This document shows, in pieces, positions 9,445 through 32,371 of a DNA stretch of 64,000 nucleotides (position 1 is the first letter of the stretch; the number at the start of each line of letters is the position of its first letter). Location: positions 2,046 to 66,045 of the IMG/VR virus record IMGVR_UViG_3300037258_000283; one strand, written 5' to 3'. This DNA comes from a virus (taxonomy: Duplodnaviria > Caudoviricetes). The position numbers were made by a program, and so were the translations under genes. A model generated the notes under the pieces. That model made no database searches and was not told the DNA's origin. It saw only the letters and a list, made by a program, of their open reading frames with translations.

Positions 9445-11151
9445 ATGACGCACGACATGCTCCCGCTCAGGCCGTTCCAGCGTGAGGCGCTGGACGCTGT
9501 GGTGAAGGCACACGCGAGCGGCATGCGCCGTCCCGCTGTCGTGCTCCCAACGGGCTCGGGCAAGACCTTTTTGTTCTCCCACCTGGCCGCTGAGCACCAC
9601 GCGGCTACCGGGCAGCGGACGCTCATCCTCACCCACCGTGACGAACTGGCAACTCAGGCAATGGCGGAAATCAGGGGTGTTGCCCCGCACCTGTCTGTCG
9701 GCAAGGTGAAAGCGGAAGACAATGACGTGGACGCGGAGGTGGTCGTTGCCTCCGTGCAGACCGTCAGCCGGACCGAACGGCTCGCTGCGCTGCTGCGCTC
9801 CCAGGCAGGTGGGGAACCGTTCGGCCTGGTGATCCATGACGAATGCCATCACAGTGCCTCACCCAGCTGGGTACGGATCACCGATGCGTTCCCGGACGCC
9901 GGTCATGTCGGTGTCACCGCGACGCTGGCCCGGGGCGACGGCATCGGCCTGGGGTCGGTCTGGGAGGACGTGGTATACACCAAGTCGATCAAGTGGATGA
10001 TCTCCCGGGGCTATCTGGTCCAGCCCCGGGGGGTGTCCGTGAAGACGGACCTGGACCTGGGCAGTGTCCGCACGGCGGCCGGTGACTACCGGGCCGGGGA
10101 TCTCGGTAGCGCGATCCAGGACGCGGGTATCCCTGCGGTCATCGCGGGCGCGGTCCGGGAGCACGCGGCCGGCCGGCGCACGATGGTCTTTCTGCCGACG
10201 GTGGCCGCCGCTCACGAGACCGCTGCCGCGATGGAGTGTCTGGGGATCGCTACCGCCGTGGTGGAGGGAGCGACGCCTACTGGGGAACGGGCGCGGGCGT
10301 ACGAGCAGTTCCGCACCGGTCGTGTCCAGGCCCTGGTCAACTGCATGGTCCTGACCGAGGGCTTCAACGCCCCGTGGGCGGACTGCATCGTCGTCGCCCG
10401 CCCCACCCGGTCCGGTCCGCTCTATCAGCAGATCGTCGGACGCGGGCTGCGGACCTGGCCCGGAAAGACCGACTGCCTGGTACTGGACCTGGTGGGCGCG
10501 TCCACAGACAACAAGCTGGTCACCCTGATAGATCTCGAAGAGGGCATGTTCCCGGGCCGCAAGCCCTGCCGGGAGTGCTGGCGCACCCCGTGCGTCTGCC
10601 CCTGCGGGACCTGCGGAGGACCGCGCCCGTGCCCGGACTGCCGCGCGGAGCAGCCCGGCATCGTCCTGACCGGCACGGGGGAGGAAGTGGACCTGTTCGC
10701 CGCGTCGCACTCCGTGTGGCTGCGCACCCGTACAGGGATCATGTTCATCCCGACCGGGGACAGTGACGTCCTGCTCTGGCCGCGCCGCGACGGTGCCTGG
10801 GACGTGGCGGAGGCGCGGACCGAAGCGGCGGCCGGCACCGGCAGGCGCGCCGCCCGCATGGTCCGGCTGCACGCCGCGCTCCCGATGGAGACGGCCATGG
10901 CCTGGTGCGAATCCGAGGCGGAGGACCGGGGCAGTGCGGAGGCGCTGGGCTACCGCGCCGGGCACCGCGACGCCACCTGGCGCAAGCGCAGGGCCGCCGC
11001 CACCCCGGAGCAGCTGGCCCGCTGCACCCGGCTGCGGATCACCGTCCCCGGCGGCGCGACCAAGGCACAGGTGTCCGACCTGCTGTCGGTGGACGCCGCC
11101 AGCCGCCGGATCGACCCGTTCGTCATCCGCGCCGGGCTGGCAACGTCATGA
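9445..11151 (+). CDS. SF2 DExH-box helicase
   Basis: LRPFQ, PTGSGKT, DECHH, TAT, LTEGFN, QIVGRGLR; Cys-rich insertion. Confidence 0.93.
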   Translation: MTHDMLPLRPFQREALDAVVKAHASGMRRPAVVLPTGSGKTFLFSHLAAEHHAATGQRTLILTHRDELATQAMAEIRGVAPHLSVGKVKAEDNDVDAEVVVASVQTVSRTERLAALLRSQAGGEPFGLVIHDECHHSASPSWVRITDAFPDAGHVGVTATLARGDGIGLGSVWEDVVYTKSIKWMISRGYLVQPRGVSVKTDLDLGSVRTAAGDYRAGDLGSAIQDAGIPAVIAGAVREHAAGRRTMVFLPTVAAAHETAAAMECLGIATAVVEGATPTGERARAYEQFRTGRVQALVNCMVLTEGFNAPWADCIVVARPTRSGPLYQQIVGRGLRTWPGKTDCLVLDLVGASTDNKLVTLIDLEEGMFPGRKPCRECWRTPCVCPCGTCGGPRPCPDCRAEQPGIVLTGTGEEVDLFAASHSVWLRTRTGIMFIPTGDSDVLLWPRRDGAWDVAEARTEAAAGTGRRAARMVRLHAALPMETAMAWCESEAEDRGSAEALGYRAGHRDATWRKRRAAATPEQLARCTRLRITVPGGATKAQVSDLLSVDAASRRIDPFVIRAGLATS

Positions 11152-11516
11152 TCCCCGACGCTGACGCACAGCGCCGGGAGGCCGACAACTCCGCGCTGCG
11201 CGGCGGCCACCGGGCTGACGCCTGCCCGCGCCGGGTGTCGGTGGAGACCTACGGGGACGCCGGGCATCCGCACTGGTGGCACGGCGACTGCCAGTCCCCG
11301 GGAGCAGACCCGGCCAAGAGTGCCGGTGCCCCGACCGACCGACCGACCCCGCGTGAGGCACGGCTGCTGTCCCAGGCTTTCGAGACCTTCGCGGCGGCTC
11401 TGAACCGCCGCTCCGACACCATGACCGGCCGCAGGATGCCGCAGGCCGCGCACGCACTGAGCCAGGCGGCGGACGCCGCGCTGGAGACCGCTGATGTGTA
11501 CCGGAGGATGACGTAG
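11148..11516 (+). CDS. hypothetical protein
   Basis: ATGA overlap with the helicase stop. Confidence 0.5.
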   Translation: MIPDADAQRREADNSALRGGHRADACPRRVSVETYGDAGHPHWWHGDCQSPGADPAKSAGAPTDRPTPREARLLSQAFETFAAALNRRSDTMTGRRMPQAAHALSQAADAALETADVYRRMT

Positions 11517-13798
11517 TGACCCAGGAACCGAGGACGACCGGCACATGCCGCGAGTGCGGCAAGGAGGACATCACCCTGACATCGTGGGGAGCTGTCCGCG
11601 TTCATGGTCCCCGAGATGAACGCTGCGAGGGCAGCGGGAAGCTGCCGGACACCGGGGACGACGACGTGTCGAAATTCTGTGTCCTCTGCCGGAGCGGCGA
11701 ACATGATCGCACGGCTCACGCCTCGCCGGAGGCCGATGCTGCCCGCGCCCGGATCGCGGCCGGACCGTCCGCCGGACCCAATCCGTACCGGCCGCCGCTG
11801 TCCACGGAGCAGCCGTTCTACTGCGGCGTGTGCATCGGCTGCGGCAGGGACGCCCGTCCCGGGGGCCTGGGGTGCACCGAGTGCACGGAGCAGTACGGGG
11901 AGGAACAGCTTCGCGCCTGGAATGATGACGTACCCGTAGGGCCGCTGCCCACGGAGCAGCCGTCCTGGGACGGCGTTGATCCCTGGCACAACGACCCGCC
12001 GACGGAACGCGACGTCCGGGACGCTGAACGCGTGCTGATGTCCGGAGCACCGGACGACGTCCTGAGCGCCGCCTACGGTGTGCTGGACGATGCGCAGGCC
12101 CGGGGCACCTACCCCGCCGCCTCCGCGCCTGCGGACCCCGGTCCGGAGGAAGAGGACCCGTTCGCCTCCCCGGCGGCCGTGGTGCCCGACAGGGGGCCGT
12201 GGTTCGCGTCCCGCTACGACGGGGACTGTGACGGCTGCGGGGCCGACTTCGGCGAGGGCGACGACATCCGCGCCGACGGCTCCGGCGGCTGGGAGGCGAA
12301 GGACTGCTGCGGGGAGGACGCCGCGCCGGCGCGGGAGGACGTGCCGCGCCGGATCACCCCGAAGGTCCCGCTGAACGGCAACCACCGCTACGTCATGCCG
12401 CATCCGCAGAACCCGCGCAAGCAGTGGACCGCCCAGCGGGTGACCACGTTCACGAAGCTCGCCAGCGAGACCTTCGCGCTGGAGCAGTGGGCGTTGCGGA
12501 ACGTGGCCGTCGGCATGGCCGTGGACCCGTCCCTGGTGACCCGGATCAGGGCCATGCTGGAGGAGGCCCCGGACGGCGACGGTCCGGCGGAGCTGGTGTC
12601 CAAGCGGCGTCCAGCGATCGAAGCCGTGGTCACCGACGCCAAGACGGCCGCCGGGGACAAGGACAGGGCGCGCAAGGGCACCCGGAGCCACAAGCTGGCC
12701 GAAGAGCTGGACGCCGGTCACCGGACCCTGGACCAGGTGCCGCCGGAGTACCGCGCCGACCTGGCGGTGTACCTAGAGGCATGCCAGGCAGCCGGGTACA
12801 CCATGCTGTCCCACCTGATCGAGCGGACCACGGGGTCGGTGGCGTACGGGGTCATGGGCACGTTCGACCGGGTGGTCCGCTGCCCTGACGGCCTGTACCG
12901 GGTGTTCGACCAGAAGACGGGAAAGATCCGGTACGGGCAGAAGGAGATTGCCGCGCAGCTGGCCTGCTACGTGACCGGCTGCAACGAGACCGGTATTGCG
13001 CAGCACGACGGAATCGGCGACCCGAAGGACTGGGAGTCGTGGCGCTGGGTGCCGCTGACCGATGATCAGGGCCGTCCGATCACCGTGGAGACCGACTACG
13101 GGATCGTGGCCCACGTCCCCTACGGCCAGGGTGAGTGCACGCTGTACCCGGTGCCGCTGGACGTCGGCCGTGAGGCGATGAACCGCTGCCGGGACAACCG
13201 CGAGTGGCAGAAGTCGGACGCCTGCTTCGGCTCGCCGATCCCGGTGCCCGCGCTGGACGACGTGCCCGATCCCGGGGAGCTGCCCGGCTCCGTGCCGGAG
13301 CTGGTCAGCGCCGGATACGACAAGGCCACGGTTGCCGCCACGGTCGCCGGGGACACGCTGGACGTCGGCCGCCCGGCTGAGCCGTTCTGGGAGCACACCG
13401 AGTGGGTGCGCCGGTTCAGCGGCGTGGCCGCGTCCGCCGACGCCCGCGCCCTGTACTTGGAGTACGCGGCCGACCCGCACCACGACCCGCAGACGCTGGC
13501 GGAGCTGGCGGCCCTGGCGACGGCGGCACTGGCCCGGGCGAAGGCGGCTGCGGCCCGGCCGCAGGCCCCGGAGCCGGCAAAGGCCCCGTTCGTGCCCGTG
13601 GAGCCGGTGGAACTCCCCTGGACCGACGCCGGTGCCGCGCTGCCGACCTGGGAGCAGCGGTTCGGCTCGGTGACCACGAAGGCCGGAGCCCGGGAGCTGT
13701 ACCTGGAGTACACGGCCGCGCAGGACGGCGGCTCCCCGGGCGGGCACCTGGACGCGCTGGTGCGGATCGCGAACGCCGCTCTGGCCCGGCGCGCTTGA
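11516..13798 (+). CDS. PD-(D/E)xK (Cas4/RecB-like) exonuclease with N-terminal Zn-finger motifs
   Basis: RVTTF...LEQW, GTRSH, GTFDRVV...DQKTG, QLACY; several CxxC pairs; duplicated C-terminal motif. Confidence 0.75.
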   Translation: MTQEPRTTGTCRECGKEDITLTSWGAVRVHGPRDERCEGSGKLPDTGDDDVSKFCVLCRSGEHDRTAHASPEADAARARIAAGPSAGPNPYRPPLSTEQPFYCGVCIGCGRDARPGGLGCTECTEQYGEEQLRAWNDDVPVGPLPTEQPSWDGVDPWHNDPPTERDVRDAERVLMSGAPDDVLSAAYGVLDDAQARGTYPAASAPADPGPEEEDPFASPAAVVPDRGPWFASRYDGDCDGCGADFGEGDDIRADGSGGWEAKDCCGEDAAPAREDVPRRITPKVPLNGNHRYVMPHPQNPRKQWTAQRVTTFTKLASETFALEQWALRNVAVGMAVDPSLVTRIRAMLEEAPDGDGPAELVSKRRPAIEAVVTDAKTAAGDKDRARKGTRSHKLAEELDAGHRTLDQVPPEYRADLAVYLEACQAAGYTMLSHLIERTTGSVAYGVMGTFDRVVRCPDGLYRVFDQKTGKIRYGQKEIAAQLACYVTGCNETGIAQHDGIGDPKDWESWRWVPLTDDQGRPITVETDYGIVAHVPYGQGECTLYPVPLDVGREAMNRCRDNREWQKSDACFGSPIPVPALDDVPDPGELPGSVPELVSAGYDKATVAATVAGDTLDVGRPAEPFWEHTEWVRRFSGVAASADARALYLEYAADPHHDPQTLAELAALATAALARAKAAAARPQAPEPAKAPFVPVEPVELPWTDAGAALPTWEQRFGSVTTKAGARELYLEYTAAQDGGSPGGHLDALVRIANAALARRA

Positions 13799-13822
13799 CT
13801 TCGTCGTACCTACAGGTACGAT
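13795..13822 (+). promoter_or_regulatory. sigma70/HrdB-like promoter with overlapping palindrome
   Basis: TTGACT-16 nt-TACGAT; inverted repeat CGTACCT-AC-AGGTACG spans the spacer and -10. Confidence 0.5.
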
Positions 13823-14012
13823 TAAGGCGCGTACTGCTGAACGGCCGACGTCCCGCGCTCCCGCCGGAGAAGATCCGGGACGTCGGCCCCAGAATCGGGA
13901 GCCGTCCGGTCTCGTACACCGGAACGGTTCCGGCGGAGCCCGCGCCCTGTCCTTCGGGGCACGGTCTCCGCATCCCCGTACCCGACACGATCACGGAAAC
14001 GGAAACGACCCC

Positions 14013-14540
14013 ATGAGCACACCGTTCGACAGCGACGACGACCCGTTCAACGACGGCCCCGACGACAGCGACCCGTTCGACTCCCCGGCGGAGATCCCCA
14101 GCGAGTTCCCCAAGTTCGATGACCACCTGCGGGGGAGGCTGCTGCTGATCAAGCCCACCAAGCTGGAACAGGGTCTCGTCTCCACCACCCTGCCGAAGAA
14201 CTCCGACGGCACCCCCGTGGTCCAGGACCGCATCACCGCCGACGTCTACGTGCTGGACGGCGCGCCGCTGGCCGACTTCGCCGGTGCAACCGCGTTCCCC
14301 GGCCTGTACATCAGCCAGTCCCGGGTGGTGGTCCAGCTGAGCAACGTAGCCCAGCTGGGTGCCAAGACCCGCCAGACCATGGTCCTGGGACGGCTGAACA
14401 CCCGCTACGCGCAGGGGAAGCCCAACCCGACGGCGAAGGAGCGCAAGGCCGGACCCGGCAACCCGTGGGGTCTGGAGGACCCGACCGACGCCGACAAGGC
14501 CACGGCCCGCGCCTACCTGAAGGCGAACGGCATCGCCTGA
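14013..14540 (+). CDS. acidic hypothetical protein, possible ssDNA-binding/recombination factor
   Basis: Acidic N-terminus; LLLIKP...DRITADVYVLDG...PW.LEDPT.AD...ARAY; follows the exonuclease. Confidence 0.6.
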   Translation: MSTPFDSDDDPFNDGPDDSDPFDSPAEIPSEFPKFDDHLRGRLLLIKPTKLEQGLVSTTLPKNSDGTPVVQDRITADVYVLDGAPLADFAGATAFPGLYISQSRVVVQLSNVAQLGAKTRQTMVLGRLNTRYAQGKPNPTAKERKAGPGNPWGLEDPTDADKATARAYLKANGIA

Positions 14541-14553
14541 CCCGCACCGAGAC

Positions 14554-14587
14554 GCCCCCGGACGCCGACCTGGCTCCGGGGGCTTTT
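14554..14587 (+). terminator. intrinsic terminator
   Basis: GCCCCCGGA...TCCGGGGGC stem followed by TTTT. Confidence 0.65.
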
Positions 14588-14606
14588 CCGCAGAGAGGAC
14601 TGAGAC

Positions 14607-14942
14607 ATGACCGAGACGCGCAGACGGTACGGCCGTCCCCGTCCCCCGCAGGTCGTCACCCGGGACGCGGAGGCACTCAGCGTGCTCCGGGACGCCGGGA
14701 CGGCCGGACTGTCCCGCAACGAGGTGGCGGGACGCCTGGGTGTCGCACCCCGGCTGGCCAGCTACGCACTGCACCGCCTGCGGCGTCTCGGCATCGTCCG
14801 GCACGTCCCGCGCGGCAACGAGGGACACGGCTACTGGGCCGTGTCCGGGACGAAGAGCGAGACGCACAGCGGGACCGGGACACCGACCGGGACGAAGAGC
14901 GAGACACCCACCGAGACACAGGAAGCAGGCAGCGGGACATGA
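14607..14942 (+). CDS. winged-HTH DNA-binding protein
   Basis: ALSVLRDAGTAGLSRNEVAGRLGV...ASYALHRLRRLGIV. Confidence 0.75.
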   Translation: MTETRRRYGRPRPPQVVTRDAEALSVLRDAGTAGLSRNEVAGRLGVAPRLASYALHRLRRLGIVRHVPRGNEGHGYWAVSGTKSETHSGTGTPTGTKSETPTETQEAGSGT

Positions 14943-15442
14943 TCGAGGACCCGAGCTACATCCCCGGCGTGACGCCGGTGCAGTACCCCGAGCCCGGTGC
15001 CACGGGCACCTGGACCCAGGACGCCCTCCCCGGTACCGGGCCGGCGGACACGATGGCGGCGCTGCGGGAGCACGTACGGGACCTGGGGTCACGCCTCCAA
15101 CCCGGCCTGGTGATCCTGCGGCAGGCCGGGATCGTCCCGCCGGAGGACGGCCTGACGGCGGGGGACGTCCTGGACCGGGCCTGCGACTGGCTCCGCCAGC
15201 CCCACCCCGACCTGAGCGCGGCGGAGTACGGCGACCTGTCCGAGATCCTGTACACGCCGGTCCTCCCCGTGGAGGACCCGGACCCGGAGCTGGTGGCCCT
15301 GGCCCGTGTGGTGGCCGAGGACTACGCCGGCGCGCGGACCGTGGTGGAGGCCATGTCCCGCCGGGACCGGGCCGTCCTCGGGTTCTACCTGACGGAGCTG
15401 GGACACGTCCTGGACGCCGTGGACGCGGCCGACCACCGGTGA
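14939..15442 (+). CDS. hypothetical protein
   Basis: MIEDPSY...; ATGA coupling. Confidence 0.6.
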   Translation: MIEDPSYIPGVTPVQYPEPGATGTWTQDALPGTGPADTMAALREHVRDLGSRLQPGLVILRQAGIVPPEDGLTAGDVLDRACDWLRQPHPDLSAAEYGDLSEILYTPVLPVEDPDPELVALARVVAEDYAGARTVVEAMSRRDRAVLGFYLTELGHVLDAVDAADHR

Positions 15443-15627
15443 GCGTCCCGTTCCGCCGGGCACTGGCGCTGATGGCGTTCTCCGCTCTGCTGAACGGGCA
15501 CCCGGTGTATGCCGCTCGGCAAGTAGAGATCATGACGATGACCGAGCGGGACACCCTGTCCCGCTTCCTGGAGGAGTTCCGGGACATGGTCACCGAGACG
15601 GGACGCGTCTCGGCAACCGGGAACTGA
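15439..15627 (+). CDS. hypothetical protein
   Basis: GTGA overlap; shares the M(S/T).R.R..L..(Y/F)L.E motif with the upstream gene's C-terminus. Confidence 0.5.
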   Translation: MSVPFRRALALMAFSALLNGHPVYAARQVEIMTMTERDTLSRFLEEFRDMVTETGRVSATGN

Positions 15628-15756
15628 GACGCACCGCTGAGACGAGACGCACCACCGAGACGCACCACTGAGACGAGACGCACCACTGAGACGAGACGCA
15701 CCACTGAGACGCACCACTGAGACGCACCACCGAGACGAGATGGGAGACGAGACGCA
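15626..15756 (+). repeat. GAGACGCA direct-repeat array (candidate clt)
   Basis: 8 copies of GAGACGCA, 7 of them as 13-mers GAGACGCACC(A/G)C(T/C), with interspersed GAGAC. Confidence 0.85.
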
Positions 15757-16808
15757 TGGACCGAGACATGAAGCGGGACACCGAACCGGGTGAGACGGAC
15801 CGGGTGAGACGGACGGTCGCCACGGTCGGTCTGGTTGTCCCGACGCTGATGGCCCTGGGGATGTCCGCTGATACCTCGTTCCGGTTCCTCGGAGCTGTGC
15901 TGGGGATCGTGGACCCTGCGGAGCGCGGTGTCCTGACGGGCACTGCGGAGGCCGCTGTCATTGCCCTGACCCTGTACGCCTGGGCCACGTCCACCCGGCT
16001 GGCCGCGCGGATCGCGTACCTGGTCGTCCTGGTGCAGGCCGTACCCGCGTTCGAGGTGTCCGGCGGCTATGGCGGCATGGTCCGCACAGCCCTGGGGCCG
16101 GTCCTGCTGGTCGTGCTGCTGCACCTACTGCTGGGCCTGGAGCTACGGATGTCCCGGGTGCGCCCGTCCGGCATCGTCGCTGACATCCTGCGGGAGGCCC
16201 GAGAGCGTCTGGTCGCCTACCTGGGCATCGGTCGGCGCGGCACCGACTCCGCCGCCATTGCGCGCAGCCGTGCTGCGGACCGGGCCGTGGTCCTGGCCGA
16301 TCGGGTGGCGGAAGCTCCGGAGAAGAGCCGGAAACGTTCCAGGCGTTCCGCCCGGCTGTCCGCCGCAGTCGATGCGGCCCGGCACGGCCTGGACGCATCG
16401 GACGCGCGGGCGATGGAGGCGGCCATCGTCGCCCGGGTCGTGCGCCGCAAGTCGGTGGACGGCCTCGCTGGGATCAGTATCGAGTACGACTGGGCGGGGA
16501 CGGTCACCGAGACGGTGTCCGGGACACCGGGACGCGTTGAGACGTCTCCGAAACCCGTCTCGCGTGTGTCTCGCCCGGCCCTGGCTGTCCCGTCTCGTGA
16601 GACGGCTCCCGGTGGGACGGAACTCCTCACCACGGTGGAGGCCGCCGCCCTGGCGTCCCAGCTCCGGGGCGAGACGGTCACCGCCGCAGTTATTCGCAAC
16701 TGGAAATGGAGGAGTCGTCTCATCCCCGCGACCGACGTGGACGGGACGCTGTACGAGCGAGACGCGGTCGTGGCCGCAGAACTGAAGACGCGACGCGTCT
16801 CGCCCTGA
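15756..16808 (+). CDS. Spd-like multi-TM plasmid transfer/spread protein with C-terminal HTH
   Basis: About four TM helices, Arg/Ala-rich helical region, C-terminal LLTTVEAAALA...AAVIRNWKWRSRL. Confidence 0.65.
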   Translation: MDRDMKRDTEPGETDRVRRTVATVGLVVPTLMALGMSADTSFRFLGAVLGIVDPAERGVLTGTAEAAVIALTLYAWATSTRLAARIAYLVVLVQAVPAFEVSGGYGGMVRTALGPVLLVVLLHLLLGLELRMSRVRPSGIVADILREARERLVAYLGIGRRGTDSAAIARSRAADRAVVLADRVAEAPEKSRKRSRRSARLSAAVDAARHGLDASDARAMEAAIVARVVRRKSVDGLAGISIEYDWAGTVTETVSGTPGRVETSPKPVSRVSRPALAVPSRETAPGGTELLTTVEAAALASQLRGETVTAAVIRNWKWRSRLIPATDVDGTLYERDAVVAAELKTRRVSP

Positions 16809-16884
16809 GACGAGACGTCCCCGCGTCTCACCCCGAGGCGCGGGACACCGACCGAGACGCAACGACCGAGGAAGCGAGACGCAC

Positions 16885-17358
16885 ATGAGCGGGACGGACA
16901 GGCACTGGGTGGGGAACAACGACTTCGCCGCATGGGTCAAGAACATGGAGAGCACGGAGGTGCGCAGCGCGGACGACCTCCACGCGTACTGCGAGCAGGG
17001 ACGCGGGGCGTCGCAGTACGTCTCGGTGGTCCAGGACCAGTTCGCGGCGGACCTGAGGATCATGTTCCGGGACGCGGACCGCAGCCCGGACCCGAAGACC
17101 GCTGCGGAGAACGCGGAGATCGGGTTCGACCCGCACTACGACCGCCGGTTCCGGGGCGTCGTGCGGGAGATGGCGAAGGTGTCCGACGCCTACGAGGCCG
17201 CCGCGAAGCACCTGTTCGCGGCCTGGCTGAAGTTCGAGAAGGCGGCCGTCCAGATGGACTCCGACCGGAAGGAGGCCGTGGCCAAGCACCGTGCGACGGC
17301 CAAGCAGTCCGCGCCGGCGGCCACGGGGTCCGCGAGGGGGTTCAAGTTCAGTGGCTGA
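16885..17358 (+). CDS. TraA-like plasmid transfer protein
   Basis: 157 aa helical protein directly upstream of and overlapping traB; S.DDLHAYC pattern resembles Streptomyces TraA. Confidence 0.55.
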   Translation: MSGTDRHWVGNNDFAAWVKNMESTEVRSADDLHAYCEQGRGASQYVSVVQDQFAADLRIMFRDADRSPDPKTAAENAEIGFDPHYDRRFRGVVREMAKVSDAYEAAAKHLFAAWLKFEKAAVQMDSDRKEAVAKHRATAKQSAPAATGSARGFKFSG

Positions 17359-19390
17359 GACCAAGGAAGAGACGGCAGGGGAGCGCCGGGCGGCTCCCCG
17401 CCGTCCGTCCGCCAAGAGCCGGAAGGACGTCACGACCGGCCCCCTGACCAGCTACCTTGTGCCGCTGGCCCTGTGCACCGGCACGATGCCGCTGGCGGTC
17501 GTGCTCCACCTGGTGTGGGGCACGTCCATGCTCATGGTCGCGCTGCTGGGGGCGCTGACGGCGCTGCTGCCGCTGTACGTGCACACCACCTGGCACAAGC
17601 GCCACGAGCACACCCGGATCACCGCGTCCGTCTTCACCCTGGTGGTGTGCGTCTGGCTGACGGTGGCCGTGGCCGCCGGGCCGTTCGGGACCGATGTCCT
17701 GGACCTGTGGGGGCTCGGCGTCCTGGTCATGCCCCTGGCCTGGGTGCTGCGGCACACCGGGCTGTCCGGGGGCACCGAGCACGACGTCTCCCGCAGCGGG
17801 GCGGACACCATGCTGGCGCGCCTGCGCACGGTCCTGTCCGGGCTGCGGGAGCACAAGGTGGTCACCGGGAGCAGCGGCACGGAGGTGAGTGCGGAGTACG
17901 CCTACCCGGCCGGGGAGATGACGGCCGCCGATGTCCAGGCGGCCCTTCCCAACATCGCCAGTGCCCTGGAGCTGCCCGCCTCCGCCGTGTCCGTCGTCCC
18001 GGTCACGGGGCCGGGCAACCGGGTCCGGATCACCGCACAGGCCGCCGACCCGCTGGCCGGGAGCCCGCTGACCTGGCCCGGCTTCTCTGCGCGGGGCACG
18101 TCGGTGAACGACTCGCCGCTCCGGTTCGGCCGCCGGTCGGACGGCCGCGACGAAGGTCTCTGGGTCTGCGGCGATCCGGCGAAGGACCGCCAGCTGGTGC
18201 ACACCATGGGGGTCGGCATGCCGGGTTCCGGCAAGTCGGACACCGGCGTGGCGATCATCCTGGACGGCCTGTCCCGGGTGGACTTCGTGCCGGTCGTGGC
18301 GTCCTCGGTGAAGTTCGCGCAGACGTACGGGGACATCGCCGAAGCCCTGCCGGTAGCGGCTGACGGGCCGGAGCAGACGTTCCAGCTGATCGCCAACTTC
18401 CCTGCGGTGATCGCCTACCGCTCCCAGCTGATCGGGTCGCTCCGCAAGGCCGACGGCAGCCAGTTCAAGCAGTGGGAGCCGGAGCTGTGGACCGAGCACG
18501 GCATCCCGCTGGTGTTCGTCGTCCTGGACGAAGCCGCCTCAGTGACGCACGGGAATGAGGACTTCAACGAGGGCGTGCGCGTGCTGCGCAGCCTGGGGGT
18601 GCACTTGCTGGTGGAGATTCAGTCGGCAATCGGCACCTCCATCGACCGGAACATCCGCGACATGATCGGCCAGCGGCTGGCGCACGGCTGCATGAGTGAC
18701 ATCGACACCGGGTTCGCCCTGCACGACAGCACCGTCGCGGCCGGTGCCGACCCGACCAAGTGGGGCGCGAACAAGGCCGGGGCGCACTACGCGGAGCTGA
18801 CCGGCGTCCCGGCCGACCAGTGGCACCTGGAGTGCCGCAGTTTCCGCACCGACGCGCCGGGGCTGCGCAGCCGGGTGCTGGCGGAGACGAAGGGCAGCCG
18901 GGCCGTGCTGGACCCGGGCACCGCGTTCCACCTGGGGAACGGGATCAAGCGCCCGGACTGCTGCCTTCCGTCGGTCCCCGACGTGGTGACCGCCGTCCTG
19001 GAGCAGGCCGGGGACACGGACACCGTCCGCTACCTGGCCGACATGCCCGCCGACGACCTCCCGGAAGCGGACCCGGAGTACGCGGACGTGGACGCCTCCG
19101 AGCCCATCCCGTACACGCTCCCGGCCGGGACACCGGTCCCGGTCCGGGCTGTGCAGCCGGCCGGACCGGCGTCCCCGGCTGCCGCGCGGGAGGCGTTCGA
19201 GCGTCGGTTCGAGGAACTGGCGGCGGAGCGCAGCACGGTCACGGCGGCCGACTTCGCGGAGGTCCGCTACGCCGTCGGCCGTTCCCGGAACTGGCCGCTG
19301 TGGGAGTTGAAGCGGCTGGAGGAGCGGGGGCTGGTGAAGCAGGAAGAGCCCGGGAGCAAGACCTGGAACGTCCGCCAACGGGCCGCGTGA
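17351..19390 (+). CDS. traB: TraB FtsK/SpoIIIE-like conjugative dsDNA translocase
   Basis: N-terminal TM helices; Walker A GMPGSGKS; Walker B VVLDEAA; GADPTKWG; C-terminal wHTH GRSRNWPLWELKRLEERG. Confidence 0.82.
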   Translation: MAETKEETAGERRAAPRRPSAKSRKDVTTGPLTSYLVPLALCTGTMPLAVVLHLVWGTSMLMVALLGALTALLPLYVHTTWHKRHEHTRITASVFTLVVCVWLTVAVAAGPFGTDVLDLWGLGVLVMPLAWVLRHTGLSGGTEHDVSRSGADTMLARLRTVLSGLREHKVVTGSSGTEVSAEYAYPAGEMTAADVQAALPNIASALELPASAVSVVPVTGPGNRVRITAQAADPLAGSPLTWPGFSARGTSVNDSPLRFGRRSDGRDEGLWVCGDPAKDRQLVHTMGVGMPGSGKSDTGVAIILDGLSRVDFVPVVASSVKFAQTYGDIAEALPVAADGPEQTFQLIANFPAVIAYRSQLIGSLRKADGSQFKQWEPELWTEHGIPLVFVVLDEAASVTHGNEDFNEGVRVLRSLGVHLLVEIQSAIGTSIDRNIRDMIGQRLAHGCMSDIDTGFALHDSTVAAGADPTKWGANKAGAHYAELTGVPADQWHLECRSFRTDAPGLRSRVLAETKGSRAVLDPGTAFHLGNGIKRPDCCLPSVPDVVTAVLEQAGDTDTVRYLADMPADDLPEADPEYADVDASEPIPYTLPAGTPVPVRAVQPAGPASPAAAREAFERRFEELAAERSTVTAADFAEVRYAVGRSRNWPLWELKRLEERGLVKQEEPGSKTWNVRQRAA

Positions 19391-19460
19391 CGGTCGCCGT
19401 ACGGTGGGACACGGGCCTTCCGGTCCGTGTCCTGCCGTGTGCCGACCGGCACATACCCGC

Positions 19461-19547
19461 CTGTCAGAAGCTGTGACAGCCGCCCGACAGCGGCTGACAA
19501 CAGTGGTCACAACAGGACTGACAACAGCTCCTGTCGGGCCTCTGACC
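19461..19547 (+). repeat. (T/C)GACA(AC)AG repeats downstream of traB (second candidate clt)
   Basis: tgacagc, cgacagc, tgacaacag, tcacaacag, tgacaacag, flanked by inverted ctgtca/ctgtcg. Confidence 0.55.
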
Positions 19548-19619
19548 TTAAGTACTCATCAGAACTGTCCGTGCCTGACGTCAGCCGGGCGTCAGCTCCA
19601 CCGGAAAGGACCCGCAACC

Positions 19620-19856
19620 ATGATCCGAACTGTGGTGGCCACCGTGCACGTGGCCATGATCGCTGCTCTCCTGCTCATCCTCGGTGCCGCCATGAGCCCG
19701 TCCGCGCGCGGCGTGGGAATCCTCGGGTACGCCGTCATGGCGCTGTGCGCCGTGCTGGCCGACGTCATGATCACCTGGCCGCTGGCCGGCGGCACCCGCG
19801 CCGCCGTCCGGGTGCCGCTGAAGCTGGCCGTGCGCCGGCTCCGGAGGCGGAAGTGA
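19620..19856 (+). CDS. small membrane protein (Spd-like)
   Basis: Two hydrophobic helices, basic tail, GAAAGGA RBS. Confidence 0.65.
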   Translation: MIRTVVATVHVAMIAALLLILGAAMSPSARGVGILGYAVMALCAVLADVMITWPLAGGTRAAVRVPLKLAVRRLRRRK

Positions 19857-19963
19857 GCCGCCGGTGGGGGCAGCGCCATCCCACCCGCTGGCCGCTGCTC
19901 ATCTGGTCGGTGGGCGGCACGCTGATCGCGCTGGCGCAGATATGGATGTGGACCCGTGGCTGA
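19853..19963 (+). CDS. small membrane protein
   Basis: GTGA coupling; one TM helix. Confidence 0.45.
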   Translation: MSRRWGQRHPTRWPLLIWSVGGTLIALAQIWMWTRG

Positions 19964-20402
19964 CCGCGAACCCCTGCACGGGGTGATAGTCCGCGCGGCG
20001 GACCGGCCGCTCGAGCGTTTCGGTACCGACGGCTGGCCGGTCGGGCGGCCGATGGTCGTGGAGGTGCACCACTACCATCCCCCGGAGCCGGTGGCCGCCT
20101 CCCCTCCCGCGCGCGAGGATGAGGGGTGGGACCTGCTCCGGCGGCTGACTCCGTACTTCGTGATCGCGCTGCTGGCGATCGTGTTCCTGGGCAGCCTGGC
20201 GGGGGTGCTGCTGATACTGATCCCGCCGTTCATGGCGCTGGTGGCGACGCTGATGGCGTCGCTGGTGACCATCGCGGCCTGTGCCGTGGCGCTGGTCGTG
20301 GCGCTGGTCCTGTTCAGCGCCGTGATCGGCCGGATGCTGCACACCGGCCGCCGTGACCGGACGCTGGAGAAGCTGGCCGCGAACCAGGCCCCGCGCCCGT
20401 AG
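19956..20402 (+). CDS. membrane protein (Spd-like)
   Basis: VVEVHHYHPP motif followed by a ~60-aa hydrophobic stretch. Confidence 0.65.
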   Translation: MADREPLHGVIVRAADRPLERFGTDGWPVGRPMVVEVHHYHPPEPVAASPPAREDEGWDLLRRLTPYFVIALLAIVFLGSLAGVLLILIPPFMALVATLMASLVTIAACAVALVVALVLFSAVIGRMLHTGRRDRTLEKLAANQAPRP

Positions 20403-20410
20403 GAAGTCTC

Positions 20411-20443
20411 CGGCCCCGCATCCGTCCCCCGGGTGCGGGGCCG
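20411..20443 (+). terminator. GC-rich hairpin, probable terminator
   Basis: CGGCCCCGCATCCG...CGGGTGCGGGGCCG just after the stop; no U-tract. Confidence 0.55.
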
Positions 20444-20503
20444 CTGCATGTCCGCAGGTCGGAGCGGCGGGGGACCGGTCGCAAGAATCTTGCCGGAACC
20501 CCC

Positions 20504-20532
20504 TTGACGGGGGGCAGGAGAGGTGACATATT
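20504..20532 (+). promoter_or_regulatory. sigma70/HrdB-like promoter
   Basis: TTGACG-17 nt-CATATT with extended TG. Confidence 0.55.
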
Positions 20533-20539
20533 CGTATCA

Positions 20540-20760
20540 GCAAGGACGAACGAAGCACAACAACTGAACAAGGTGCCGGTGCCAGACCACCGGACATCCC
20601 AGAGATAAGGCCCCCGGAAAGGCTAAGGCTGGGAGGGACGGGAGAAGCCAGCGAACCTGGTCGGCGTCCACGAGTGAACAAGCCCCGCATACGTGATCAC
20701 GACGTACGCAGCGAACGCAACGCGGGGCACGCGAGAACGACCATCGCCCGAGTGAGGGAG
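20540..20760 (+). ncRNA. candidate structured leader or ncRNA
   Basis: A-rich 5' part then nested stems (ccggt/accgg, tcccag/ctggga, ccag/ctgg, gccccgc/gcggggc). Confidence 0.35.
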
Positions 20761-20766
20761 CACCCC

Positions 20767-21189
20767 ATGAAGCAGGACGCAGGACCGGCGTTGGAGGCCA
20801 AGGCGCGCAAGGGCGACTTGATCCTGATCGAGACCGTGACGCGCAACTCCTACTCGGTAGCAGCCCGTATGGAGGCGAAGGCCGCCGGACGGGAACTGTC
20901 CCAGGAGGACACCACGTACACCTTCGGCGTGGTCGCCTCAGCGACCCGTGAGGGGTACGTCAAGTCCTGGTCATCCGTCGGGTACGGGGACGAACTAGTC
21001 AGCACGTACGCCATGCCGATCGGAACGAAGGAGCGGCGCTGGGTGGTGGGCCAGAAGGACATAGACGTTCCCGCAGCCATGAAGGCCGCGAAAGCGCACC
21101 ACTGGGACGGTCACCCGGGGCAGCCCCAGCCGTTCGATTCCCTCAAAGAGGCGACTGATACTGTCCGCCCGTTCCGGATCACCCACTGA
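20767..21189 (+). CDS. hypothetical protein
   Basis: ATG with GAGGGAG RBS; KARKGDLILIE... Confidence 0.7.
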   Translation: MKQDAGPALEAKARKGDLILIETVTRNSYSVAARMEAKAAGRELSQEDTTYTFGVVASATREGYVKSWSSVGYGDELVSTYAMPIGTKERRWVVGQKDIDVPAAMKAAKAHHWDGHPGQPQPFDSLKEATDTVRPFRITH

Positions 21190-21309
21190 CCCACCAGCCC
21201 GGCCGGAGTTCACCGCTCCGACCGGGCACTGCGACCGCAGCAGGCGCACCCCGTAGTCAACCGGCCCGGCCTGCTGCGGTCGTCACCACCGACCCAGGAA
21301 AGAGGAATC

Positions 21310-21474
21310 ATGATGACCACGGTCCGGACCGCGAAGCGCTACAAGGTCCGCTTCGACCCGTTCACGGACGCCCCCGGCGTCATCGACCTGCGGACCGGCC
21401 GCTTTGTCCGGCACTCGGGGGACGACCGCCGGGTGCGGCAGCTCCGCGCCCGGCTGGAGAGGACTGGCCGATGA
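21310..21474 (+). CDS. small basic hypothetical protein
   Basis: Manual ORF following AGGAAAGAGGAATC. Confidence 0.6.
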   Translation: MMTTVRTAKRYKVRFDPFTDAPGVIDLRTGRFVRHSGDDRRVRQLRARLERTGR

Positions 21475-21635
21475 TCTCCGTTGCCGTCATGATCGGGATC
21501 GCCGTGGCCTGCGGGCTGCGGTTCCTGTACCTGGTCTGGCTCAAGCGCCGGACCGCAGACGTCCTGTGGACTACCGCCACGGGCATCGGAGCCGTGCTGC
21601 TGGCGCTCCGCTTCCTGCACGAGATGCACCGCTGA
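21471..21635 (+). CDS. small membrane protein
   Basis: Manual ORF MISVAVMIGIAVACG...; two TM helices. Confidence 0.55.
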   Translation: MISVAVMIGIAVACGLRFLYLVWLKRRTADVLWTTATGIGAVLLALRFLHEMHR

Positions 21636-21672
21636 TCCAGGAACCGCACCACCGGCCCAGGAACGAGGAACC

Positions 21673-21909
21673 GTGTCCGTGTACCCGTACACCGTGATCA
21701 AGAACGTGGCCACGCTGCCGTCCGCTCCCGTCTTCGGGGAGCTGGCCGACCACCTGGGCGACTGCCCGCAGTGCTACGGCGCGTCCGGTCCGCAGCACGC
21801 GGACCCGGGCAGCGACGACACAGCCGGGCTGTGCCCCGACGGCGCGGCCGTCGTGACCGCGTTCCGCTGGGACGTGGCCGCCATGGCACAGACGGCCGCC
21901 TGGAACTGA
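21673..21909 (+). CDS. Cys/His hypothetical protein (paralog of 26771-27001)
   Basis: DHLxxCPxC...LCxxG...WN. Confidence 0.65.
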   Translation: MSVYPYTVIKNVATLPSAPVFGELADHLGDCPQCYGASGPQHADPGSDDTAGLCPDGAAVVTAFRWDVAAMAQTAAWN

Positions 21910-21912
21910 GCG

Positions 21913-21966
21913 CAGCATGGCGGAGCGCGGGTACCTCCCGCGCTCCGGCCACGGGTGCTCAGCCCG
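21913..21966 (+). ncRNA. 54-nt structured intergenic element, copy 1
   Basis: Flanks identical to 27585-27638; central hairpin differs in sequence. Confidence 0.6.
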
Positions 21967-21988
21967 ATCACTGATCGAGAGGAACGAC

Positions 21989-22264
21989 ATGACTGAGCCC
22001 GCTACCACCCCCGTCAGTATCCCCGACGCCAAGCAGCGCATCGCGTTCACCGGCGACGGCCGGCACTGGCACGGCACCGTCACCCGCCACACGACACGCC
22101 CCGACGGCAGCCCCCGCCTCCACGTAGACGTGGACCCCGGCAGCAGCGGCATCAGCTCCGTGGCGTACCGGCTCGGCGATCACTTCCGCCTCACCCGTCA
22201 GGGCGAGATCTGCCCCGACTGCGGCGAGCCCGACCGTGGCCTGCCGATGTACAGCCGCCCCTGA
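21989..22264 (+). CDS. hypothetical protein
   Basis: GAGG RBS; C-terminal CPDCG. Confidence 0.6.
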   Translation: MTEPATTPVSIPDAKQRIAFTGDGRHWHGTVTRHTTRPDGSPRLHVDVDPGSSGISSVAYRLGDHFRLTRQGEICPDCGEPDRGLPMYSRP

Positions 22265-22297
22265 CCCCGCACTACCCCGACCCAGGAAAGAGGAATC

Positions 22298-22534
22298 ATG
22301 GACCTGACCAAGCTCATGCACACCGCCGCCTTTGACGAGTCCAGCGACATCGGATTTGAGGACATCCGGACGTGGGCGGCGCACGACAGCGGGGGCGGCC
22401 TGCCGGACGTCGCTGCCCTACCGTTCGCCGCGTGGCTGGACGCCGTCTGGAGCGACTACGACGACGGTGAGGGTACGCAGACCAATGACGACGTCCTGAA
22501 GGGCGCTCTGGCGTACTGGACGGGGTCGGCGTGA
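22298..22534 (+). CDS. acidic hypothetical protein
   Basis: Follows AGGAAAGAGGAATC. Confidence 0.65.
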   Translation: MDLTKLMHTAAFDESSDIGFEDIRTWAAHDSGGGLPDVAALPFAAWLDAVWSDYDDGEGTQTNDDVLKGALAYWTGSA

Positions 22535-22716
22535 GCGGCGCTCCGGAAGATCTCATGTGCCGTACCTGCCGGGACATCCTGCGCTGGTACGGCCACGGCG
22601 GTGTCGGCTATCTGCACGTCCATGTGGGTGGTCCGTCCCGGGGGAAGTTCTTCATGACAGACCACCCGGTCCCTGAGGACCAACGCCACAACCCGAGAAA
22701 GGACCACCGACAATGA
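22531..22716 (+). CDS. hypothetical protein
   Basis: CRTC; GTGA coupling. Confidence 0.5.
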   Translation: MSGAPEDLMCRTCRDILRWYGHGGVGYLHVHVGGPSRGKFFMTDHPVPEDQRHNPRKDHRQ

Positions 22717-22943
22717 GTGTCCCGAAGCGTCGCAAGGACTACGCGAGCAACGCCCGCAAGCGTCCGGCCAAGCAGTCCGGGTGCACCTGGTGCGGGGCGG
22801 ACACCGACCACGTGTCGATGTACTGTTCCGACGCCTGTCTCCAGGCCGACATGGAGGGGATCGAGGACCGCCCGCCGGTCACCGTCCTCGCCTTCACCGT
22901 GGCCGGGTGCTCGGATGAGTACCTGGCCCGGAAGTGGAGCTGA
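22713..22943 (+). CDS. Zn-finger-like hypothetical protein
   Basis: CTWCG...YCSDAC. Confidence 0.6.
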   Translation: MSVPKRRKDYASNARKRPAKQSGCTWCGADTDHVSMYCSDACLQADMEGIEDRPPVTVLAFTVAGCSDEYLARKWS

Positions 22944-23006
22944 CCCCCGAGCACGCGTGGCGTACCTGCGGGCACTGCTGCCGACCCAGGAGAGAGGAAG
23001 GATGAC

Positions 23007-23581: not shown

Positions 23582-23651
23582 TCCCACACCTGTTGGAGGA
23601 CAGCCGGCGTCCATGGCGCCGGCCGACCGGGTCCGACCCCCGGAGCGGGAG
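23582..23651 (+). pseudogene. highly degenerate tRNA-like element (CAT anticodon)
   Basis: D-arm CTGT/ACAG; anticodon arm CGGCG-TCCATGG-CGCCG; T-arm CCGGG-TCCGACC-CCCGG; acceptor stem 5/7 paired. Confidence 0.4.
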
Positions 23652-23760
23652 CAGGCGGGAGGTCAGGCGGGCCGCACGTCCCTCTTGGGGACAGGGCATG
23701 CCCTGCTACAGGTATCCGTAGACCGACGCCAGGCGGGGGCAGACGTGCCCCCGCCGACTT

Positions 23761-23833
23761 GCCCCGGCAGCTCATCCGGCAGAGCGCCCGCCCCACACGC
23801 GGGGGGCAGCAGGTTCGATACCTGCCCGGGGTT
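23761..23833 (+). tRNA. tRNA-Val(CAC)-like, atypical (C8, C33, no encoded CCA)
   Basis: Acceptor GCCCCGG/CCGGGGT; D-arm GCTC/GAGC; anticodon arm CCCGC-CCCACAC-GCGGG; T-arm GCAGG-TTCGATA-CCTGC. Confidence 0.72.
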
Positions 23834-23861
23834 CGCAGAACCGACCCAGGAAGGAGTGACC

Positions 23862-31302: not shown

Positions 31303-31471
31303 GGGCTTGTTCCTTCTCCCCTTCGTCCGCCAGGAGGCGGCTGATCCGCTTCCGGACGGTGGTCTCATGGCATCCGAGGTACCGCGCCGTGGCCGCGTAC
31401 GACCCGCGTAGCAGGTACTCGAAATACACTGTACGGCTGTCCACGCTCAAGGCGGGTTCCTGCCACGTCAT
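31280..31471 (-). CDS. small HTH protein
   Basis: GSYAATARYLGCHETTVRKRISR. Confidence 0.6.
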   Translation of the reverse strand: MTWQEPALSVDSRTVYFEYLLRGSYAATARYLGCHETTVRKRISRLLADEGEKEQAHVQAVRH

Positions 31472-32370
31472 GCGGTGACGGTGAAGCCGTGCCGCGTCCC
31501 CAGCCACGTCAGCGTGGTCTTCCCGGGGATGCCGTCCGCGTCCGCGCCACGGTACCCGCGACGGCGCTGGAGTGCCGCGTACGCGGCCACGGTGGCGGAG
31601 CCGAACGACCCGTCGTAGGCGTACTCGTTGCCCAGCAGCCCTTCCAGCCGCAGTGCCGCTTCCACCGGCTTCACGTCGGCCGGACGGGTCGTGTGCCCCT
31701 GGGCTGCCTGCGGGTCGTGCTCCGCCGCGTACACCGTGTTCTTCAGCGACACCTTCGGCTTCGCCGGGACCGGCGGCGGTGCAGCCGGCGTGAACGCGGC
31801 CACCCATGCCCGGAGCGCGTCCGGCTCCAGGTGGCAGTAGTCCAGGTCCACGGTCCGCGCGGCGTACTGGTGGAACAGCCACGGTGCATCGATCCCCGGC
31901 GCGCCCGCCAGCAGCCCGGACGTGGCGATCCACAGGAAGTCCTGGTAGTAGCCGGAGGTGTCCACGTCCAGCCAGTAGTCCTTGTTGCAGTACAGCCCGA
32001 CCGGGTTGTGCGGCAGCTTCCCCTTGACGTAGGCCAGCCACGCCTCCTTGTACGCGAACTGCCGGGTGAGCGGCACGCCGGCGTTGGCCGCGTCGTAGCC
32101 CTCCCAGTCCAGGACGACCAGGTGGCCCGGCTTCACGGCCGCGTGCGCCAGGAAGTAGTCCGCCTCCACCGTCACCTGGTCGGCCATGTGCGGGTAGTGG
32201 TAGGCACCGGGAACGAGGCCGCCGGAGACGGCGCGCGCCGTCTGCGCGGTGTACTCGGGGTTCTGGTAGGTCGTGCCCTCGGTCGCCTTCGCGAAGGCGA
32301 ACGTGAGCCCGGCCGTGGGCGGGGCCGGGGGCTGGTACGAAGCCCAGTCCTGGCCGTACGAACCGGTCAT
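31468..32370 (-). CDS. endolysin, GH25 muramidase with peptidoglycan-binding domain
   Basis: GQDWASYQ, FAKATEG, GAYHY, LDWE, WLFHQY; C-terminal DGSFGSAT...ADGIPG. Confidence 0.9.
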   Translation of the reverse strand: MTGSYGQDWASYQPPAPPTAGLTFAFAKATEGTTYQNPEYTAQTARAVSGGLVPGAYHYPHMADQVTVEADYFLAHAAVKPGHLVVLDWEGYDAANAGVPLTRQFAYKEAWLAYVKGKLPHNPVGLYCNKDYWLDVDTSGYYQDFLWIATSGLLAGAPGIDAPWLFHQYAARTVDLDYCHLEPDALRAWVAAFTPAAPPPVPAKPKVSLKNTVYAAEHDPQAAQGHTTRPADVKPVEAALRLEGLLGNEYAYDGSFGSATVAAYAALQRRRGYRGADADGIPGKTTLTWLGTRHGFTVTA

Positions 32371-32371
32371 G

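Follow-up and report, generated by a model that had tools for sequence, protein, structure and literature searches.

The TraB block at 14.55-20.45 kb

The window considered here is a 64,000-nucleotide (nt) stretch of the genome of a tailed soil phage, namely bases 2046-66045 of the 66,045-base linear IMG/VR record IMGVR_UViG_3300037258_000283, for which the CheckV completeness estimate is 77%. At 14.55-20.45 kb it carries a co-oriented block of genes and repeats, bounded by two strong hairpins, that includes homologues of TraA and TraB of Streptomyces plasmids. In Streptomyces conjugation, double-stranded DNA is moved by one pump. A sequence-only reading of the window had described the hairpins, a winged helix-turn-helix (wHTH) gene, two repeat arrays, a multi-transmembrane (multi-TM) gene, a TraA-like gene, an ATPase and three small membrane genes at this place, and all of them were found again at or near the same positions. 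Its gene list was short of two open reading frames (ORFs; 14939-15442 and 15442-15627) and of a further hairpin at 19392-19447.

The ATPase gene (17351-19390, + strand) has a GTG start at 17351, in a frame that is open from 17291, and encodes a TraB homologue of 679 aa. The protein matches the NCBIfam family NF041214 plasmid_TraB along nearly its full length (E 1.8e-88, 297.6 bits, profile positions 8-628 of 639), and no Pfam family, including FtsK_SpoIIIE or the gamma domain, is matched at E 0.01; it is thus, as had been supposed, a TraB homologue and not a chromosomal FtsK. It groups with the plasmid TraBs, at 25-34% identity. With this protein as the query, tblastn at E 1e-5 returned 41 plasmid records, 38 of them from Streptomyces and many annotated as traB, at 25-34% identity; against pSN22, pJV1 and pWTY27 the identity is 26-29% over 57-83% of the length. 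The Walker A (GMPGSGKS), Walker B (VVLDEA) and RSRNW motifs can be read directly, and G294/K295 and E394 are invariant in 20 homologues. In an AlphaFold2 (AF2) model, four helices at the N-terminus precede a core of RecA type, and the C-terminal domain is a winged helix arranged as helix-helix-helix-hairpin; the model's predicted local distance difference test (pLDDT) value is 63.9 overall, 70-92 in the core and C-terminal domain, and 83-92 in the winged helix. The best PDB matches of the model are the FtsK motor (Foldseek E 3.9e-10 to 6t8o) and TcpA, and the sequence also matches phrog_24831, whose function is not annotated, at E 6.9e-47. The protein is therefore predicted to be a membrane-anchored homologue of the FtsK-type translocases of double-stranded DNA, with a C-terminal winged helix.

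Upstream, and overlapping the start of the TraB gene with its end, lies the gene for a TraA homologue of 157 aa (16885-17358, + strand). Its match to NCBIfam NF041213 plasmid_TraA (E 3.4e-4, 20.7 bits) is under the cut-off of 80; the profile of its family aligns with pSN22 TraA at an hhalign value of 95.3% (E 2e-8). The gene before it (15756-16808, + strand) encodes a multi-TM membrane protein of 350 aa with three hydrophobic segments by hydropathy, and occupies the position held in plasmids by the Spd/DUF2637 proteins. It is 31% identical over 377 aa to pZL12.73c, encoded by pZL12, a Streptomyces plasmid-phage (E 5e-27). Within its blast family, 3 of the 23 members match DUF2637, including that of the relative G002 (E 1.9e-12), and Atlas leads from the protein to DUF2637/SpdB clusters score 0.79-0.85, below 0.9. 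Its C-terminal end appears to be helix-turn-helix-like, solely on Atlas structure leads. A putative Spd assignment of the window copy rests on position, topology and the match to pZL12.73c.

Directly 3' of the traB stop there is a long hairpin (19392-19447, + strand; -49.7 kcal/mol, z -5.25, 0 of 200 shuffles), which is either a terminator or the inverted-repeat part of clt, the recognition site of TraB. It is followed by repeat array 2 (19474-19527, + strand), in which the words TGACAGC, CGACAGC, TGACAAC, TCACAAC and TGACAAC stand at a spacing of 10-12 nt, 84-137 nt past the traB stop. This is the densest cluster of [TC][GC]ACA[AG]C words in the window, with five in 80 nt against two in the next best, and it is the best candidate, on sequence, for the TraB recognition repeats. 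In pWTY27, passages of PMC3583192 describe a footprinted clt of four TGACACC copies at the 3' end of the translocase gene, and TGACACC repeats were found at the traB 3' end when the plasmid sequence was checked. Among 29 loci of the phage and its relatives, 19 have at least three TGACA, TGTCA or TGATCA words within 160 nt after traB, and in 17 this segment is the richest of its locus of about 20 kb. The word is TGTCA in L023 and TGATCA in its close relatives L026, L028 and L029, and the presumed start of the recognition helix changes alongside it, from GRKRGW to G(K/F)TP(G/Q)W; this is suggestive of co-variation between repeat word and recognition helix. One locus, L011, has no TGACA-type array after traB, yet contains nine such words in another 160-nt segment, so that its array may have moved.

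Between array 2 and the membrane genes lies a conserved box, CTGACCTTAAG (19542-19552, + strand). Boxes of the type CTG(A/G)CCT(T)A(A/G)G stand at the matching place in most loci, as judged by eye and uncounted, and possibly represent a promoter element or the site of another protein. The block then closes with three small hydrophobic ORFs (19620-20402, + strand) whose start and stop codons overlap: a membrane protein of 78 aa with two hydrophobic stretches, preceded by GGAAAGG (19620-19856); an uncertain gene of 36 aa, whose one hydrophobic stretch is below the hydropathy threshold used (19853-19963); and a membrane protein of 148 aa, called by hydropathy and kept after traB in the relatives (19956-20402).

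The first gene of the block (14607-14942, + strand) encodes the wHTH protein of 111 aa, whose Pfam matches (HTH_91, 9.5e-5; HTH_24 and MarR_2, about 2e-3) are all, at E 1e-4 to 3e-3, under the curated cut-offs; tblastn placed its relatives, 32-49% identical, in the vicinity of traB at 21 of 30 loci, L002 and L021 among these being a single element. It is a candidate regulator of the block, placed where plasmids have TraR/KorA and not of the GntR type. Its stop overlaps (ATGA) the start of an ORF of 167 aa (14939-15442, + strand), which has no Pfam, PHROG or PADLOC match and whose C-terminal part matches small ORFs at the equivalent place in L008, L006 and L019. An uncertain small ORF follows (15442-15627, + strand; 61 aa, or 31 aa from the ATG at 15533), for which no homologue was found.

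Repeat array 1 (15623-15756, + strand), just upstream of the multi-TM gene, holds 8 of the 11 copies of GAGACGCA at a spacing of 13 or 18 nt, and two more copies stand in the spacer ahead of traA (16854-16883, + strand, by word count). All 11 copies in the 64 kb are on the + strand and within 14859-16883, when 3.5 would be expected and none of 100 shuffles reached 11. The shorter word GAGACG occurs 34 times on the + strand across 14549-17369. Relatives carry arrays of their own at about 1 and 2 kb upstream of traB, and the words in them (GGGACA/TGTCCC types) differ with the lineage. Array 1 may be an operator bound by the wHTH protein or else a further site for TraB; we infer that it belongs to the small wHTH protein, and the downstream array 2 to TraB. 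Logan unitigs of run X1, described below, fragment to pieces of 38-41 nt at 15656-15703, inside this tandem array, and its copy number in the assembly may be inexact.

At the left boundary, 3' of the phrog_870 gene, stands a terminator-like hairpin (14553-14583, + strand; -31.2 kcal/mol, z -3.62, none of 200 shuffles as stable) followed by UUUU. The right-boundary hairpin (20412-20444, + strand) has a 13-bp stem (-37 kcal/mol, z -4.06), and past it a consensus scan placed a sigma-70-like site at 20504-20532. The same scan gave no sigma-70-like site ahead of the block and listed none of the three hairpins as a terminator.

Relatives, contiguity and age of the block

The cassette was looked for in related phages by a profile (alignment-based) scan of IMG/VR, a single-protein TraB scan of viral contigs having returned nothing. 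This gave 29 further IMG/VR loci with a TraB homologue, at 31-48% identity and on contigs of 29-98 kb; among the 28 searchable relative records, 20 were judged at least 90% complete and 9 had direct terminal repeats. ORF families were built by single-linkage blastp from 28 relative loci and the window, with L030 excluded as cut at traB and L002 as equal to L021. TraB is present in all 29 of these loci, the Spd-position protein in 23, TraA in 22 and the 148-aa membrane protein in 23, with an exonuclease upstream in 21, and these five families keep one conserved order across the loci. The neighbourhood of TraB is equivalent in all 28 relative loci analysed.

Two relatives, G002 and G014, share the tail, tape measure, capsid, portal and terminase genes of the phage at 45-72% identity, and have TraB at a position matching that in the window. 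Other relatives share replication genes only, so the module travels with the early region and not with one structural module. The clade has several structural modules, since the terminase and capsid of the window have no match in the relative pS1D4-14.2, described below, and phrog_9 matches occur in only G000 and G002 among 29 records.

A tree of 42 proteins unites all 29 viral TraBs with two from Streptomyces draft contigs in a single group (Shimodaira-Hasegawa-like approximate likelihood ratio test, SH-aLRT, 99), which stands apart from 6 plasmid TraBs and 4 chromosomal ones of Yinghuangia/Embleya. Pairwise TraB identity follows that of the exonuclease closely (Spearman 0.91 over 18 loci; none of 2000 label permutations as high), and also tracks TraA (0.83), the 148-aa membrane protein (0.73) and, to a lesser extent, the Spd-position protein (0.43). 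Our reading of these sequence comparisons is that the TraB block has probably long been inherited vertically within the phage lineage.

A subgroup with genomes of 92-98 kb carries, directly after traB, a stand-alone gene of 129-149 aa that is a paralogue of the TraB C-terminal winged helix (27-47% identity over about 45-120 aa). It lies at about 12.2-12.7 kb in each of the loci L014, L015, L017, L018, L020, L021, L022, L024, L025 and L031. Similar small genes stand upstream in this subgroup too, and the window is without such a copy.

The block is continuous with phage DNA. Run X1 is possibly the source sample. Two of its contigs, 17.7 and 41.8 kb long, span 11000-15685 and 15682-23000 with 0 differences and an even depth of about 40; they bridge both borders of the block, and the break lies solely within tandem array 1. 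The joint occurrence of structural genes and TraB in G002 and G014 points the same way. No att-like repeats flank the block, the sole spanning pair being 72% alike over 29 nt and situated within genes, and the G+C content, 61-74% across the window, does not shift at the block. The suggestion that the cassette is carried as a separate insert did not hold, in view of these observations and of the co-divergence of TraB with the exonuclease; nor was misassembly, which had been named as a possible source of the arrangement, upheld against the even X1 depth and the equivalent location in relatives.

PHROG and Pfam scans confirmed the window as a tailed phage genome. They identified, besides tail protein and portal genes, a DNA polymerase (PolA; 3597-5342, - strand), a primase (5364-7583, - strand), a helicase (9445-11151, + strand), an exonuclease (11516-13798, + strand; phrog_466, E 4.8e-51), a GH25 endolysin (31468-32568, - strand), a tape measure protein (41404-46449, - strand), a protease-capsid fusion (50646-53477, - strand) and a large terminase (55147-56736, - strand). 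Virion, lysis and transfer genes are thus all on one replicon. The + strand carries every gene from about 7985 to 30626, the block included, with the exonuclease and phrog_870 genes to its left and a series of small genes plus two tRNAs to its right, which bears out the earlier remark that the block is co-oriented with phage genes.

Some further features of the phage may be recorded here. The frame at 50646-53477 joins the capsid maturation protease and the major capsid protein in a single 943-aa product, like that of the Rhodococcus phages REQ1 and Jflix2 (40-44% identity). A papain-family cysteine protease gene (1670-2596, - strand; Pfam E 4.4e-6) is also kept in G007, G001, pS1D4-14.2 and pZL12 (pZL12.46c region). 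The tRNAs on the right are tRNA-Met and tRNA-Val (23582-23834). ARAGORN additionally called an 85-nt tRNA-His (7435-7519, - strand) within the 5' part of the primase frame, which is a false call unless the primase has its start further downstream.

Proposed virion-independent movement and its alternatives

Relatives of the phage, more distant ones, occur in Streptomyces isolate assemblies, and so its host very probably belongs to Streptomyces or a closely related group. One of the relatives, pS1D4-14.2 (NZ_CP041606.1; loci L002 and L051), was deposited as a 98.8-kb linear plasmid of the Streptomyces soil isolate S1D4-14, and encodes a terminase, portal, major capsid, tape measure and integrase, which makes it a tailed-phage genome; the passages of its source paper that concern it mention only extrachromosomal elements of 98.8-394 kb (PMC6722414). 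Others form whole contigs in Streptomyces drafts (L052-L055), namely of S. africanus (92.7 kb), NRRL S-455 (95.7 kb) and NPDC017936 (92.2 kb). At least some members of the clade persist in cultures. No integrase had been seen in the window, from which a phage-plasmid lifestyle had been put forward as possible, and this extends to the whole 66-kb record, which at 77% completeness has no match to a tyrosine integrase, serine recombinase or ParB_N; with regard to partition genes ParB_N was scanned, and ParA and Rep were not searched for. Among the clade records, a tyrosine integrase occurs in 9 of 29 and ParB_N at cut-off in only 3 of 29, and both kinds of recombinase, tyrosine integrase and serine recombinase, are missing from 10 of the 20 whose completeness reaches 90%.

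On balance, and with some reserve, we consider it probable that the block is a phage-adapted form of the Streptomyces plasmid traA-traB-clt-spd module, old and vertically inherited, that moves double-stranded phage DNA without virions. In a clade of phages of actinomycetes, probably of Streptomyces, it forms part of the early (replication) region. The identification of the module is well supported by the sequence comparisons, and the virion-independent movement of DNA is what we infer from it by reasoning. Under this proposal, TraB would form a membrane-anchored hexameric pore, its winged helix would recognise the phased TGACA-type repeats just 3' of its own gene, and it would pump double-stranded phage DNA across septal cross-walls and points of contact between hyphae, helped by the Spd-position protein and the small membrane proteins. 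The wHTH protein with the GAGACGCA array would control expression of the block. As an outcome, the phage genome could spread within and between mycelia without virions, either during infection or in a carrier state.

More generally, and as a tentative idea that we hold to be possible rather than probable, phages without an integrase or partition gene may use a co-evolving TraB-clt-Spd set as a movement system, pumping naked double-stranded genomes while replicating. If this were true, one adsorption would seed a whole mycelium as well as receptor-less neighbours, and capsid-independent cell-to-cell spread would exist in a multicellular host, with a logic comparable to that of plant-virus movement proteins. 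If the clade has long kept a pump and its address site, virus and plasmid spread would be combined far more often than pZL12 alone suggests. This bears on how phages cope with compartmented, developmentally resistant mycelia, on the host-range limits set by receptors, and, because TraB can mobilise chromosomal DNA too (as stated in passages of PMC6722414), on gene flow among soil actinomycetes. The presence of relatives in the cultured strains Streptomyces sp. S1D4-14 (pS1D4-14.2), S. africanus NRRL B-24243 and Streptomyces sp. NRRL S-455 makes these ideas directly testable.

Several observations weigh against a DNA transfer module of the plasmid kind. The TraB score of 297.6 bits compares with a curated cut-off of 800, which places the protein outside the NCBI 'equivalog'. 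The sequence-only reading called the module apparently complete, which goes too far: TraB is accompanied by TraA, the Spd-position membrane protein and clt-like repeats, and a GntR-type TraR/KorA regulator is absent from the block by Pfam scan. The Spd-position protein of the window has no Pfam match, and its family profile aligns with the DUF2637 protein of pWTY27 at an hhalign value of 3.5%, which is not significant. A TGACA-type array after traB is absent in 10 of the 29 loci, some of which have other repeats, and the co-variation of word and helix amounts to two or three changes among related sequences. The TraB tree came from a quick maximum-likelihood search with a midpoint root. The record is incomplete, and a lytic phage kills its own replication compartment, so that the benefit of pumping DNA out of it is not obvious.

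The main rival is a role in maintenance, which we regard as rather unlikely. Here the module would distribute an episomal phage genome, in a carrier state or as a plasmid-prophage, through the compartments and spores of its own mycelium, without transfer to others, in an action like FtsK-type pumping at sporulation septa. The occurrence of relatives as whole phage-sized contigs, or as a 'plasmid', in Streptomyces isolate assemblies fits this, and the rarity of ParB_N would make another segregation device useful. The same plasmid proteins drive intramycelial spreading, and, on the other side, plasmid TraB alone suffices for intermycelial transfer (both from passages of PMC4447253); because of the latter, sequence cannot separate the two roles. 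The half of the nearly complete records that is devoid of both recombinases gives no sign of stable carriage, which in itself leaves a lytic lifestyle unproven.

It is improbable, in our judgement, that TraB and Spd act on the host without pumping phage DNA, through pock-like growth retardation, permeabilisation of membrane or wall, or the blocking of incoming plasmids or phages. In plasmids, unregulated traB is toxic and stands under Kor control, and SpdB2 permeabilises membranes, as passages of PMC4447253 relate; the TraB ATPase region also weakly matches PADLOC mad8 (E 7.9e-8). This last match concerns the P-loop and falls 80 orders of magnitude short of that to TraB. Additionally, the C-terminal winged helix is retained, with the high pLDDT in the model given above, and the repeat array stays beside traB across the clade and changes with the helix, which argues against host manipulation because, if no DNA were transported, an address on it would serve no purpose. 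Weakest, and very improbable, is the view that a fragment of a plasmid or of an actinomycete integrative and conjugative element (AICE) was newly captured or misassembled here and has no role in the phage. It can draw on the metagenomic origin of the contig, on the Logan unitigs that break within array 1, and on 19 records sharing the terminase type (27-63% identity), none of which has a TraB match and most of which are fragments or distant. It is opposed by the position of that break in a tandem repeat with evenly covered contigs on each side, by the lack of att-like repeats and of a G+C shift, by the equivalent position in 28 other viral loci, by the phage-only TraB clade and its co-divergence with the exonuclease, and by a second soil study, X2, in which short pieces identical to the block and to its flanks occur, though no piece bridges a border.

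Comparison with known transfer systems

The Streptomyces phage pZL12 reportedly also transfers like a plasmid, as Zhong et al. are said to have described in 2010, and its genes 71c-73c are what we take to be the tested transfer locus. Passages of PMC3583192, PMC4487206 and PMC7157519 present pZL12, or phage ZL12 (GQ919031), as a tailed-phage genome with a Streptomyces-type transfer locus. Its gene for pZL12.73c, the homologue of the membrane protein in the window, lies two genes from that for the FtsK-like pZL12.71c, which is only a remote match to the TraB family (hhalign 91.5%, E 9e-7), has a very long branch in the tree, and escapes tblastn with the window TraB even when E is raised to 1. 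ParAB and an integrase/recombinase are present in pZL12 and no traA is annotated there, whereas TraA is present in the phage described here and no integrase or ParB_N was found. The two share only five called-ORF matches by tblastn, too few for relatedness at the genome level. pZL12 has been termed a singleton without close relatives, in contrast to the at least 29 viral relatives found here.

In the full-text literature, subscription journals and supplements being outside its scope, we found no phage clade with canonical TraA-TraB-clt modules and only mentions related to pZL12. Among 50,697 deposited phage records, tblastn gave no TraB match at E 1e-5, and distant-mode blastn of 14000-21000 against the deposited phage collection, which may lack near-identical records, gave no match. 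What is new with respect to pZL12 is the canonical TraA-TraB type, a genome in which no integrase or partition gene was found, and a clade without a counterpart among those deposited genomes. The one marginal hit in them is Gilgamesh gp10 (24% identity, 34% of the query, E 0.02). The FtsK/SpoIIIE-like proteins of Jaresh and AndoPrime are discussed with regard to host development, and not conjugation, in passages of PMC13587820. Judged by sequence, the FtsK-like genes of cultured Streptomyces phages are a family different from the window TraB. Chromosomal FtsK/SpoIIIE shares with it the motor fold, the membrane anchor and a DNA-reading C-terminal winged helix, and the FtsK sequences in the PDB match it only at E 0.02-0.05.

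The TraB of pSVH1 is described as a single FtsK-like translocase that reads 8-bp clt repeats via a winged helix, and the Spd proteins of that plasmid as products, required for spread across cross-walls, of small membrane genes that lie in operons where stop and start codons overlap (Thoma et al. 2015, passages of PMC4447253). The same passages hold Spd proteins to be too diverse for assignment by sequence. The likeness of the phage block to this system is drawn from its description.

The plasmids pSN22, pJV1, pWTY27 and pFP3 differ from the phage as carriers of 10-35 kb with a divergent GntR regulator, in place of a phage with no GntR regulator. In pWTY27, a conjugative plasmid of 14.3 kb, a gene annotated as 'phage major capsid protein' stands just past traB and clt (4136-4350 of L061; record 10642-12102), and is another link between plasmids and phages. 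The phage TraB belongs to a clade separate from that of the plasmids, and its block has the additional upstream GAGACGCA arrays. In pSN22, pJV1 and pWTY27, as in the window, TraA is followed by TraB, with the genes adjacent or overlapping. The clt of the plasmids consists of direct repeats at the traB 3' end, often with inverted repeats, and the window has at this place its hairpin and five phased words. The order of a DUF2637 protein, traA, traB and repeats in pWTY27 and pFP3 is matched in the phage block, with the putative Spd protein in the place of the DUF2637 protein.

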